A stretch of DNA of 42,960 bases from Escherichia phage vB_EcoP_P64441: sequence record PQ847473.1. One strand, given 5' to 3'. Below, one piece after another: positions 31,539 to 34,847 of the stretch. Both the position numbers and the translations under genes were made by a program. Numbering within the stretch: position 1 is the stretch's first letter; every line of letters begins with the position of its first letter. The notes under the pieces were generated by a model that had not been told where the DNA came from, searched no databases, and saw nothing but the letters and a program-made list of their open reading frames with translations.

Positions 31539-31539
31539 A

Positions 31540-32085
31540 ATGTCTCAATTATCCCCTACTATTATGTGTTGGTAGTGTATTGGCTGTGACTCACCTTATT
31601 GTTAAAAGCTGTACAACTAATACACCAACTAATACAACTACCCGCAGCATAACACAGCACTAACCCTGCGTCAACCATTGCACAGCCTGGAAGCAAAAGA
31701 GGTAAGCCTAACGATACACCTGCACTACCTCTGACTCTCTACTGCGGATAAAATAGGCAAGAGCAGAGAGGACAGCATCTCCCTGTGCTCCACAAAATAG
31801 GCAAGACTAACCTCTCCCGCACCCTCAACAGAGAGCGCAGAGACAGCCAGCCAAGCCAGGTCCTGCCAGAGATACGCAGAGGCACCCCCTACCCTCCCTC
31901 CAGAAGATTCCCAGAGGCCGCCCCTACGGGGGGAACAGCGCGTTGGTCGGGTGAAGGAGGCCCTCGCGTGAGTATAATAAATTCAAGGTGCCTGTTTACA
32001 CTTGCAATCCTGAGCTATGTATGCTATGCCAAAGGATTCCCCAGAGATTCCAGGGGATTCCATTAGCAATTTCTCTAGCTATTCC
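31540..32085. other. Non-coding region, candidate genome-end / terminal-repeat region (collapsed in this circular assembly)
   Basis: About 550 bp with no credible ORF, lying between the last late gene and the first early gene. Contains short direct repeats ('aaaataggcaaga' twice, 'actaatacaNc' twice) and G/C-rich tracts ('ccctccctcc', 'cccctacgggggg'). Confidence 0.35.
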
Positions 32086-33648
32086 TTAGACAATACGAAT
32101 TTCACCACCATGCGGAGAGATAGGACTAGCTAAGTACGGACTACGCACTACTACGTACCCGTTCTCATCAGAAGAGATAACTGGAGGCTTACTAACGTCG
32201 TTAGTACTGAGCGCTACAGCTGTACCACCTGCTACGTGCCCTAACCAGAACCATGTACCCAGGTTGTGGTCAATCTTCAGTGCAACATACAGGAGCTGCG
32301 TATCCGTGTACTCAATGTTAGTGCTCCATACTGCGCGGCTATCAGCACCACTGGTTTCAGTACTAAGAGCAGCGCCTACAGTGAACTGTGCCTGACTACC
32401 GTTAGACATCTTCCCGTTCACCTTCTGAGGATGGTACTTGCTGGTCTGTACTGCCTTACCTACCAGTGCATCCAGCCCTACGTTCGGGTCGTACACTGTG
32501 TAAGTCTGCTGTACAGTACTGGCTTGCTTAGCGTTAGCTAGTGCTAAGCGCTGGTTACCTGCGATGATTCCGGTAGGGAAGTGCAAATCCGAGAGGTTGT
32601 AGTTACTGCCTTCGATAATATCCCACCATACAGCACCACCACCAATGCGGTTGTTAGGCTGCATGATAACGTTCGTGTTCTCATTGAACCCACCGAACAT
32701 CTTTAGACTGCTTCCGTACACCCAGCAGTTATCCATAGTGATAGCGTTGGCACTGGTAGCGATACAACCATAAGCACCAGCGGCATTGCTCTCGATATAG
32801 CAGGAGTCGAACTTAATGTTGTAAGCGCCTTGGATAAACACACCATGTGTCTGGAAGCTCTCGATACCGCAGTTAAACAGCGTCAGTGCTTCTACAGCAG
32901 ATACGAACTTAATACCTACGTCGCATACACCTGTATGCACAGAGATAAGCGGTTGGATATTCACTTCATCACGGAACTCATAACGATGCAGGCCTACTGT
33001 GTAGCTGCCGTTGCACTGCAAGTTCTTGAACGAGCTGTAGAAGCAACGTTCTGTATAAACCAGCTGCTGCACATCCACTGCTACAATGTCCGTAACCTCA
33101 CACCCGAATACATGGTTACGCAGGCGCATACCTTGATAGAAGGACATGAGCGTAGCGTTTCGGATACAGGTACCAACAGTAAGGAACTCCTCCTGACCGC
33201 TACCAAATACTGATACAAGTCTCCCTGAGGTATTGATATAACCAGTCTCAAGGAAGATGTTAGTACTGTCTGCGGTATCTGTGCGCCCTACAATGCGAGC
33301 ACCCTGCATATCCAGAGTAGTAATGCGGCGACGAGGTGTAGTAACTTCAATAGCACTAGGGGACTCTGAGGCCAGCACATACACTTTATTAGCAATATAG
33401 TAGCTCTTCCAGCCTGTAGCTTTAACTGTACCACCACCACGGCGATAGCACTCTACAAGCGCAGCCTGAAAGGCAGCCGAGTCATCTGTAGCGTTAGGGT
33501 TGCGTGTACCATCTGGAAGGAGGGCATCACCTTTAGCCCCGAAGTCGTCTACATAAACGTCACGACCTAGTGCTTCGGATACGCTACCTCCGTTATAGCT
33601 TACCCCTTCTGAATCTACACGTACTTCAATATTAGCGACTAATGTCAT
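32086..33648 (-). CDS. Tailspike 2 / putative capsule depolymerase (pectate-lyase-like beta-helix)
   Basis: 'VYVDDFGAKGDALLPDGTRNPNATDDSAAFQAALVEC' is the N-terminal signature of pectate_lyase_3-type beta-helix tailspikes. 520 aa with no T7 gp17-like N-terminal anchor. Confidence 0.65.
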   Translation of the reverse strand: MTLVANIEVRVDSEGVSYNGGSVSEALGRDVYVDDFGAKGDALLPDGTRNPNATDDSAAFQAALVECYRRGGGTVKATGWKSYYIANKVYVLASESPSAIEVTTPRRRITTLDMQGARIVGRTDTADSTNIFLETGYINTSGRLVSVFGSGQEEFLTVGTCIRNATLMSFYQGMRLRNHVFGCEVTDIVAVDVQQLVYTERCFYSSFKNLQCNGSYTVGLHRYEFRDEVNIQPLISVHTGVCDVGIKFVSAVEALTLFNCGIESFQTHGVFIQGAYNIKFDSCYIESNAAGAYGCIATSANAITMDNCWVYGSSLKMFGGFNENTNVIMQPNNRIGGGAVWWDIIEGSNYNLSDLHFPTGIIAGNQRLALANAKQASTVQQTYTVYDPNVGLDALVGKAVQTSKYHPQKVNGKMSNGSQAQFTVGAALSTETSGADSRAVWSTNIEYTDTQLLYVALKIDHNLGTWFWLGHVAGGTAVALSTNDVSKPPVISSDENGYVVVRSPYLASPISPHGGEIRIV

Positions 33649-33657
33649 GTTCTTCCC

Positions 33658-34221
33658 TTACTTAGGCATAGCAGCGAGTGCTGCTTGCACTGATTTGAAT
33701 TCATTGCCGATAGCTTTAGCTTCCCACTGACGGCGCTCCCAGAGGCCCCAGCACACCTTATTAGGCTTAACCTTTACCAACGTACTGCAGTCGTACTTAA
33801 CCCCGTTACGGGTGATGTAGCGCCAGCTGAGCACGGCTTTAGCTGCACCTGCAGTATCGCCTTGCATTAGCTTTTGCTTCGTGGTACTGTTCTTAAAACC
33901 TGAGATGCCGATGTTATAGGTCATGTCCAAAGCACCGAGAATCTGTACGTCCGTAAGCGACATAGGAAGCCCGTCAAGAGACTTAGCATGCTCACCAGCT
34001 GATTCTATCAGTTGTTGCTTACACTGCGTCAGCGTGGCTGTATCACCCATCCTAACGCCCTTAGTCTCACCATAGCAGATGGTAGGTACGCCAGCTGAGT
34101 CTTTGTATGCTTTAAGGGAGAGGCCTTCGTTATGCTGTATTACCATAGCGATGCTGGCGCCCAGCAGGGAAGTCCCTGCCAGCGCAGCCTTAACCTTGTT
34201 GCTTATGCTCATAGTATTCAA
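33658..34221 (-). CDS. SAR endolysin (GH24 lysozyme, T4/lambda-R-like)
   Basis: N-terminal Gly/Ala/Ser-rich weakly hydrophobic segment 'KAALAGTSLLGASIAMVI' (signal-arrest-release type), followed by 'EGLSLKAYKDSAGVPTICYGET', which gives the E...D...T catalytic triad spacing of GH24 lysozymes. Confidence 0.8.
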   Translation of the reverse strand: MNTMSISNKVKAALAGTSLLGASIAMVIQHNEGLSLKAYKDSAGVPTICYGETKGVRMGDTATLTQCKQQLIESAGEHAKSLDGLPMSLTDVQILGALDMTYNIGISGFKNSTTKQKLMQGDTAGAAKAVLSWRYITRNGVKYDCSTLVKVKPNKVCWGLWERRQWEAKAIGNEFKSVQAALAAMPK

Positions 34222-34438
34222 GGCCCTTCTCTAATGCTCGCTCCTTGAGCTTGTACTCTTTGTGTTTGTAGTATGCGTTCCATGCAAAGGTCAGTACAGC
34301 TACAACCGTACCGACTATGAAGGAGATTGTCCCCCAGTTCCAAGACATTATGTCTGCCATCCATCCACCGCCCATAGTGGCGACAGATACGTTTGTTCCT
34401 ACACGGGTAATAGTTTCCCCGTTAATTGGTAGACTCAT
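34190..34438 (-). CDS. Putative holin (pinholin-like)
   Basis: Transmembrane segment 'WGTISFIVGTVVAVLTFAW' and a charged C-terminus, immediately upstream of the SAR endolysin. The track ORF runs to 34513, but likely starts are the internal ATGs at about 34438 or 34375. Confidence 0.5.
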   Translation of the reverse strand: MSLPINGETITRVGTNVSVATMGGGWMADIMSWNWGTISFIVGTVVAVLTFAWNAYYKHKEYKLKERALEKGLEYYEHKQQG

Positions 34439-34847
34439 CGCTCTCGTCCTTAGTTCTTCCGAGTTTGCGGAACAACAGGACGATGATGAGGATTGCGATT
34501 GGAACCGCTGCACCTGCCAGTCCTGCTAGAATTATGCTAGTACCATCGTTGTTAACAACCTGTACTCGCTCCGTGTTAATGGTTCCAGTAGTAACTGAAC
34601 TGGACTGCTTCTTGGTAGAAGTATCCAGCGTGCCTACGTTAGAATCTTTAATTGATGTTTCATTGTCCGTGCTGGAGTCGGACTTGCCATTAAGGCCTAC
34701 AGTTTGTTTCGTATTCTCTGCGCCAGCTTGCACGGACAGGTCTGGCTTAGAGCCAATAAGATCTGTCAATGCAGAGGTCGCTGAGCAGCCTACCAAACAC
34801 CCTGTAAGAGCCGTAGCGAGGACTAACCCAGCGACCTTAGCCCGCAT
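34422..34847 (-). CDS. Putative unimolecular spanin (outer-membrane lipoprotein with C-terminal transmembrane anchor)
   Basis: N-terminus 'MRAKVAGLVLATALTGCLVGC' has a lipobox (LTGC). C-terminus 'IILAGLAGAAVPIAILIIVLLFRKLGRTKDESDESTN' is a transmembrane segment with a charged tail. This matches the T1 gp11-type u-spanin topology. 141 aa. Confidence 0.5.
   Translation of the reverse strand: MRAKVAGLVLATALTGCLVGCSATSALTDLIGSKPDLSVQAGAENTKQTVGLNGKSDSSTDNETSIKDSNVGTLDTSTKKQSSSVTTGTINTERVQVVNNDGTSIILAGLAGAAVPIAILIIVLLFRKLGRTKDESDESTN

Follow-up and report, generated by a model that had tools for sequence, protein, structure and literature searches.

Escherichia phage vB_EcoP_P64441 (sequence record PQ847473.1) was analysed as a stretch of 42,960 nucleotides (nt), referred to here as the window. 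There is a gene on its minus strand, at 32086-33648, that encodes a second tailspike of 520 amino acids (aa). This protein appears to be the secondary receptor-binding protein (RBP2) of an anchor-branch adsorption apparatus of the KP34 type, and a probability of roughly 0.8 can be given to this reading. Its partner would be the primary fibre of the phage, a protein of 1082 aa (RBP1).

In the KP34viruses, RBP1 consists of a T7 gp17-like anchor and a T4gp10-like fragment, to which the RBP1 of 'group B' adds an enzymatic domain. RBP2 is encoded after the endolysin and starts with the heptapeptide MALxxLV (Latka et al., 2019, PMC6872550). On a KP32 scaffold, a phage-level study of 2026 found that RBP2 is incorporated only if the branching domain is present together with the conserved peptide (PMC13352976). 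RBP1 of the window keeps the anchor and the branching segment of KP34 gp49 and HRP29 gp44, fused to a K1-type endosialidase. Thus, the two proteins would make up a branched dual-RBP system of the KP34 'group B' kind. This design is already known; the combination of modules is what is new, and no new principle is involved. The parts of the two genes are given below.

32086-33648, minus strand: RBP2 gene, second tailspike, 520 aa, stop codon at 32086-32088 (open reading frame, slot of KP34 gp57 and the PAS7 tailspike, confident beta-helix model)
33616-33648, minus strand: RBP2 residues 1-11, MTLVANIEVRV, which vary the KP34-type MALxxLV and are the predicted docking ('conserved') peptide (motif enrichment, alignment, model)
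33550-33615, minus strand: RBP2 residues 12-33, shortened neck or linker ahead of the beta-helix (alignment to homologues with P22, TSP or T7 anchors, whose neck it matches but for a deletion of 7 residues)
32614-33549, minus strand: RBP2 residues ~34-345, right-handed parallel beta-helix, receptor-binding and probably catalytic (model)
32860-32862, 32797-32799 and 32791-32793, minus strand: candidate active-site residues E263, Y284 and E286 of RBP2 (conservation among relatives)
32089-32517, minus strand: RBP2 residues ~378-520, C-terminal beta-rich domain (secondary structure of the model; co-conserved with the helix in full-length relatives)
37197-40445, minus strand: RBP1 gene, 1082-aa primary fibre with anchor, branching segment, endosialidase and S74 chaperone (PF03906, PF12218, PF12217, PF12195, PF12219, PF13884)
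40026-40445, minus strand: RBP1 residues 1-140, T7 gp17-like particle-binding anchor (PF03906, E 5e-12; KP34 gp49, PAS7 gp17 and HRP29 gp44)
39771-39974, minus strand: RBP1 residues ~158-225, branching segment, predicted docking site of RBP2 (alignment to KP34 gp49, profile matches)
37605-39635, minus strand: RBP1 residues 271-947, endosialidase, a depolymerase of polysialic acid (K1 capsule) (PF12217, E 1e-197, and partner domains)
37200-37604, minus strand: RBP1 residues 948-1082, C-terminal region with the intramolecular chaperone Peptidase_S74 (PF13884, match at 948-1007)

Predicted docking peptide and branching segment

A total of 80 related loci were fetched via their endolysin and the next gene was extracted from each. 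The motif M[ASTP]Lxx[LNIVMT][VI] begins 58 of the 64 post-endolysin open reading frames (ORFs) of at least 400 aa, across 24 body clusters without mutual similarity. As a control, it was searched in all 2,518 ORFs of the loci, where it begins 58; 55 are post-endolysin spikes and three are among the ~2460 others, a background of ~0.1%. Only one of the 110 ORFs in the window begins with it, namely RBP2.

The RBP2 heptapeptide, MTLVANI, fits MALxxLV at M1, L3 and I7 (for V). There is an NI sub-variant, MALVxNIxV, in the phiKDA1 clade, which is among the closest endolysin relatives (MALVQNIQV in L005, MALVRNIQV in L006, that is phiKDA1, and MALVENIHV in L008). The peptide of locus L004 is MTLVKLVEV. 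Nine of the ten RBP2 variants have an identical peptide, and the exception is T2P. MTLVANIEVRV is also the sole part of RBP2 that has no counterpart in differently anchored homologues; homology runs from about residue 12 to the last residue. An earlier sequence-only reading of this DNA had described the spike as anchorless and lacking a gp17-like particle-binding domain. RBP2 has no PF03906 match in Pfam and no folded particle-binding domain, and to that extent the description stands, but a short N-terminal docking peptide of the KP34 lineage is predicted to be present.

RBP1 has Pfam matches to Phage_T7_tail (residues 14-140), End_N_terminal, End_beta_propel, End_beta_barrel, End_tail_spike, and Peptidase_S74, and there is also a YadA-stalk-like stretch. 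The first fibre had been suspected of carrying a depolymerase, and a complete endosialidase was found in it. Over residues 1-245, RBP1 shares 59% identity with PAS7 gp17 and 48% with KP34 gp49. Residues 1-239 match chain G (Gp44) of the virion structure of Shigella phage HRP29 (PDB 8ES4, E 1e-86). The segment at ~158-225 aligns with the region of KP34 gp49 that contains the T4gp10-like fragment (aa 186-242) and is conserved in 38 loci. Its profile matches HRP29 gp44 (142-243), PhiM1 gp47 (175-272), and the multi-branched S2-4 spike of PhiK64-1. According to the ORFs of the window and Pfam, RBP1 is the sole protein with PF03906, and a separate gp37-like adaptor gene was not seen. That the second spike docks onto the first, one of the two modes that had been presumed, fits this predicted architecture of KP34-type anchor, branching segment, and docking peptide with no adaptor gene seen.

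The endosialidase part of RBP1 is ~64% identical to those of K1G, K1H, phi92, and phAPEC8-like phages. Matches to full-length RBP1 were to K1F-like proteins only, at ~45%. Thus, there appears to be no deposited phage with this fusion of anchor, branch, and endosialidase.

In loci L023, L031, and L037 the post-endolysin gene is cut down to 61-84 aa with the MALVELV start kept, and L037 has tandem copies of the part that codes for the peptide (MALVD-MALVD-MALVELV). These genes look like the truncated RBP2 remnants of 'group C'. Many distant relatives of ~470-580 aa start with M[AS]LTKVSYSMI...DFGAVGDG, which resembles MALTKLV of KP34 (P0144, P0145, P0167, P0170, P0171, P0177, P0197, P0203, P0217, P0220, and P0251). 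One context of such spikes, locus L093, is another type of podophage with P22 gp7-like and SLT ejection proteins, in which the spike follows two small proteins.

Fold and probable exchange of the RBP2 body

An exhaustive HMMER search gave 144 clusters (50% identity) at E<=1e-3, 12 of which were found at E<1e-30. An AlphaFold model of RBP2 was built on a 66-row alignment of diverse relatives. The monomer has a predicted local distance difference test score (pLDDT) of 89.4 and a predicted template modelling score (pTM) of 0.81, with residues 1-22 disordered. An earlier model from 7 close homologues (pLDDT 36.6) was set aside as uninformative and is not counted against the beta-helix. A homologue search with three distant phage relatives as seeds returned 2 proteins only. 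As modelled, RBP2 is a right-handed beta-helix of the pectin-lyase-fold superfamily. In a Foldseek search of the PDB, the tailspikes of HK620, Sf6, and AS12 came out on top (E ~1e-8), with template modelling (TM) scores of only 0.35-0.47 and no close structural twin. Most of the structural neighbours are active depolymerases. Structure prediction had been named as a check on the sequence-only reading, and it returned a confident beta-helix with a depolymerase-like fold. A fold search of BFVD gave no spike of known specificity. Sequence and profile searches of the PDB gave no solved relative of the RBP2 body, with matches only to the foreign N-terminal anchors of other rows.

The N-terminal motif that had been quoted for the protein was found, DDFGAKGD at residues 34-41 and ATDDSAAFQAAL at residues 53-64. 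The sole Pfam hit of RBP2 is sub-threshold (Beta_helix, 22.1 bits against a cut-off of 25.9). PF12708 (Pect-lyase_RHGA_epim, formerly Pectate_lyase_3) has no RBP2 match at E<=0.1 and is matched by 31 of the 66 diverse relatives (E<=1e-3). The description 'pectate-lyase-like' is therefore appropriate at the level of fold and superfamily, but not for PF12708 in RBP2 itself. Among the 66 relatives, of ~20-80% identity, Y284 and E286 are invariant and D55, Y204, N230, and E263 are nearly so. E263 (in CGIESF) and E286 (in CYIESN) are 23 residues apart, about one rung of the helix. This spacing suggests a carboxylate pair in a groove, typical of an acid/base pair.

From about residue 12, the RBP2 body is 66-82% identical to tailspikes that are anchored otherwise, over ~96% of the query. 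The large-database search gave the following formats.

638-639 aa, from E. coli and Salmonella, carrying PF09008 (head-binding domain of P22)
650-683 aa, with the TSP1/gp66 N-terminal domain PF18668
738 aa, with the T7-tail N-terminus PF03906

The P22-like prophage tailspikes (E. coli EC6; Salmonella, such as serovar Rubislaw) are 66-69% identical to RBP2 over ~20-520, helix and C-terminal domain included, but have PF09008 in place of the 11-residue peptide and belong to another virion platform. PF09008 was not found in RBP2, and homology begins after that domain. The EC6 copy is the genuine tailspike of a P22-like prophage that lies at tRNA-Arg. The 82%-identical relative belongs to a podophage with a SU10-type portal, and a 53%-identical relative of 519 aa (P0124) stands beside another spike at the right end of an SP6/K1-5-type genome. 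The same body thus occurs with different anchors in different genomes, and it can be regarded as a mobile receptor-binding module that serves five virion platforms or more. By these comparisons, the RBP2 body was probably acquired by horizontal module exchange and is also used with P22-, TSP/gp66-, and T7-type anchors in (pro)phages of E. coli and Salmonella.

Direct BLAST of RBP2 against the RBP2 proteins of PAS7 and KP34 gave no similarity past the first residues. Membership in the KP34-type class therefore follows from position and peptide and not from homology of the body. In 5,426 complete E. coli genomes, one intact and two truncated copies of the P22-type version of the RBP2 body were found. 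The truncated copies (NZ_AP027790.1, 3818168-3819322; NZ_CP019961.1, 3209913-3210939) cover 76% and 67% of the probe, at ~88% nt identity to the EC6 copy.

Proposed apparatus, alternatives and receptor

In the proposed apparatus, RBP1 trimers would bind the tail by the T7 gp17-like N-terminal anchor, with the branching segment (~158-225) just distal to it. RBP2 would also be trimeric and part of the virion; its trimers could dock at this segment via the short, otherwise disordered peptide MTLVANIEV... All six tail positions would then be equipped with a pair of enzymes. The endosialidase of RBP1 is expected to degrade polysialic acid (K1-type) capsule. The RBP2 beta-helix would bind, and probably cleave, a different surface polysaccharide in a groove with E263, Y284, and E286.

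The sequence-only reading had likened the apparatus to the dual-specificity systems of K1-5 or KP32-type phages. The dual-spike design is retained, but the closest comparators are KP34 'group B' and gp44/gp52 of HRP29. KP34 gp49 and gp57 occupy the same slots, with RBP2 as the last gene before the right repeat and the terminase and lysis genes between the two RBPs. However, the host of KP34 is Klebsiella and not E. coli, the RBP1 enzyme of the window is an endosialidase with an S74 chaperone, and the gp57 body is unrelated in sequence to RBP2 (BLAST E 0.19), with a peptide of MALxxLV rather than MTLVANI. In HRP29/Buco (PDB 8ES4), gp52 is a spike encoded after the endolysin with a P22-family body (Sf6 type) that lacks the head-binding domain, the same construction as here. 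The HRP29 fibre-spike complex was purified and shown biochemically and structurally. Unlike the 1082-aa endosialidase, HRP29 gp44 is short, serves as an adaptor, and has no enzyme (group A-like), and the body family of gp52 differs from that of RBP2. In Pectobacterium phage PhiM1, the gp47 fibre has been described as adapting gp39 spike trimers.

The PAS7 tailspike (WMX18832) is in the same slot, starts with MSLVSLV, and, like RBP2, shares its body with unrelated genera by horizontal exchange. Its role in determining O-antigen (O103) specificity is documented. The two bodies are unrelated, though, and PAS7 has an RBP1 of 402 aa without an annotated enzymatic domain and an extra fibre gene of 366 aa. 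K1-5, K1E, and SP6 resemble the proposed apparatus: they combine dual polysaccharide specificity with short N-terminal docking peptides, and each of their tail positions bears two spikes with enzymatic activity, including an endosialidase. They belong to another subfamily, use a separate adaptor (gp37), and encode the two spikes side by side at the right end; here the right end has a single spike gene, and the gp17 slot is taken by an anchor-endosialidase fusion. KP32 gp37/gp38 share the anchor-branch logic. They have a T7-like backbone (Przondovirus group A), adjacent RBP genes, and a longer, different peptide, whereas the backbone here is KP34/PAS7-like and the RBP genes are apart.

Several points weigh against RBP2 being the secondary receptor-binding protein of such an apparatus. 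Its heptapeptide is off-consensus at position 2 (T for A) and position 6 (N for L). Co-variation between the peptide variant (NI or LV) and the type of RBP1 branch was inseparable from phylogeny. The sequence profile of the branching segment gave no match to T4 gp10 itself. RBP2 is sub-threshold for all Pfam enzymatic families. Finally, the lysogens with the P22-type version share no obvious O-type (O60-family in E. coli; Rubislaw in Salmonella).

Other roles for RBP2 can be considered. It is unlikely, though conceivable, that RBP2 is a virion spike that only binds glycan and does not depolymerise it, as a beta-helix of the adhesin or lectin kind. Against this, all 66 relatives have Y284 and E286 and nearly all have E263 and D55, E263 and E286 are about one rung apart in the layout typical of an acid/base pair, many relatives match PF12708, and the structural neighbours are mostly active depolymerases. 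It is quite improbable that RBP2 is a soluble, non-virion depolymerase, made late with the lysis genes, that strips polysaccharide from neighbouring cells or debris. This would be in keeping with its place directly after the lysis cassette, with which it is apparently co-transcribed, with its lack of a folded particle-binding domain, and with the halos that non-incorporated RBP2 can still make in engineered phages. However, a peptide kept across unrelated bodies is hard to explain for a free protein, and RBP1 keeps the branching segment despite having its own enzyme. Proteins in the same slot also form a complex with the fibre (HRP29 gp44/gp52) or set host specificity (PAS7).

Attachment in the fashion of K1-5/SP6, by a separate adaptor or straight onto the tube or nozzle of the tail and not by RBP1, is very improbable. 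In a genome of that type, the 53%-identical P0124 is encoded next to a second right-end spike, and that system uses short N-terminal peptides too. A gp37-like adaptor gene was not seen, though, the sole PF03906 protein is RBP1 with its conserved branching segment, and the genome is KP34-type by gene order and sequence. There is scarcely any likelihood that RBP2 is a decaying or unused remnant, comparable to the truncated RBP2 of 'group C' KP34viruses. Such remnants, of 61-84 aa, are in the same slot of the relatives L023, L031, and L037, and the P22-type version is truncated in two E. coli prophage copies, but the RBP2 ORF is full length with helix and C-terminal domain confidently modelled, there are ten intact variants, and the ratio of non-synonymous to synonymous changes (pN/pS) is ~0.48 against a 98% variant (13 differing codons).

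If RBP2 is the docked second spike, its target can be considered. P22-like phages generally use O-antigen. This and the O103-specific spike in the same slot of PAS7 make O-antigen the best guess. The target polysaccharide of RBP2 would thus most likely be an O-antigen, or possibly another capsule. The E. coli strain with the intact P22-type copy carries an O60-family wzm/wzt cluster, and the spike is absent from the other two O60-family genomes. One Salmonella source of the P22-type version is serovar Rubislaw, which is O:11 in the Kauffmann-White scheme. In the literature, nothing was found for a lysogen-based receptor link of RBP2. Specificity may have shifted at 66-69% identity. It is a tentative and somewhat unlikely suggestion that the spikes act in series on one cell, with RBP1 clearing the K1 capsule and RBP2 then cutting the O-antigen beneath, or that RBP2 gives a cross-genus second host range. 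The latter is suggested because close RBP2 bodies are common in Salmonella prophages. Series action, if true, would make this a natural two-layer penetration device on a podophage, for capsule and then lipopolysaccharide.

The KP34-type anchor-branch design, known mainly from Klebsiella phages, would thereby be extended to an E. coli phage. It is unusual that a K1 endosialidase RBP1 with a retained branching site is naturally paired with an RBP2 body shared by tailspikes of E. coli and Salmonella (pro)phages. The pair is a natural counterpart of hand-built chimeras such as K1F endosialidase in KP32 scaffolds. The 11-residue docking peptide and the junction at about residue 12 offer module borders for engineering. 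RBP2 also brings in a family of uncharacterised tailspikes, with 144 clusters (50% identity, E<=0.001) and invariant Y284/E286.

Gene context and probable right genome end

The RBP2 gene is real. The 520-aa ORF at 32086-33648 is present on the minus strand after the lysis cassette, as had been reported, and its start is the first possible one, an ATG, 9 nt past the endolysin stop codon. A terminator scan of the gap between endolysin and RBP2 gave no terminator-like site. The order of transcription is the 1082-aa fibre, small and large terminase, a 60-aa ORF, spanin, holin, endolysin (Phage_lysozyme in Pfam), and RBP2, so that six genes lie between RBP1 and RBP2. An identical RBP2 with the same neighbours is present on three further public contigs. 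A 98% variant from another sample is paired with the same 1082-aa fibre, and thus the RBP1/RBP2 pairing is seen again in independent samples. There are ten intact RBP2 variants of 519-520 aa at >=90% identity. RBP2 and the 98% variant differ in 5 synonymous and 8 non-synonymous codons, which are too few for a firm statement on pN/pS. PHROGs gave only a weak match of RBP2 to a 'tail fiber protein' family (E 5e-11).

33652-33657, minus strand: Shine-Dalgarno-like GGGAAG, 4-9 nt upstream of the RBP2 ATG (sequence)
33658-34847, minus strand: lysis cassette of spanin, holin and endolysin, which with the terminase genes separates RBP1 from RBP2 (ORFs, Pfam)
31915-32006, minus strand: conserved end-proximal element (blastn to ~60 KP34-type loci)

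The genome is of the Slopekvirinae type (KP34/PAS7-like). Among annotated genomes, the nearest is that of Escherichia phage vB_EcoP_PAS7, a member of the Slopekvirinae for which the genus Cepavirus has been proposed. The matched parts have 78-88% nt identity and make up 68% of one query half and 33% of the other. phiKDA1, Buco/HRP29, and KP34 gave weaker matches. In PAS7 and KP34, the gene directly 3' of the endolysin is a tailspike or 'tail protein' (gp57 in KP34), and KP34 gp57 has nothing after it but the right direct terminal repeat. The KP34 counterpart of the element at 31915-32006 (locus L002, 10546-10637) spans the annotated start of the right repeat, 10595. By homology to KP34, the right repeat of this genome is predicted to start near 31957.

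The window is a de Bruijn assembly that has been circularised: 1-127 is identical to 42834-42960, and the unit measures 42,833 base pairs (bp). The true terminal repeat is therefore collapsed and the genome end is not readable from the window. The same slot in KP34 and PAS7 and the conserved repeat-boundary element indicate that RBP2 is probably the last gene before the physical right end. RBP2 had been placed next to the genome end; synteny and the homology of 31915-32006 agree with this, but the end itself is unreadable in the circularised window.

The spacer 3' of RBP2 (31539-32085, minus strand, 547 bp) contains this ~90-bp element, conserved in ~60 KP34-type genomes, and a GC-rich stretch. 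It also has a 13-bp direct repeat, TCTTGCCTATTTT, that occurs twice, 44 bp apart (~31794-31806 and ~31750-31762). A role of these features in packaging, end recognition, or as early promoters is possible. The circular cut falls within the gp16-like internal virion gene. This gene is 1256 aa in locus L083, and the window lists a C-terminal ORF of 818 aa and an open stretch of 461 aa at its start. In PAS7 (locus L001, 8919-10019), the extra 366-aa 'putative tail fiber protein' is encoded between holin and endolysin and has no counterpart in the window. Two near-identical phage contigs have one early gene swapped, which is a 272-aa KilA-N/ANT protein in L083 (14062-14880) and a 249-aa Phage_pRha protein in L091 (14082-14831). 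This suggests a mosaic early region within an otherwise conserved lineage.

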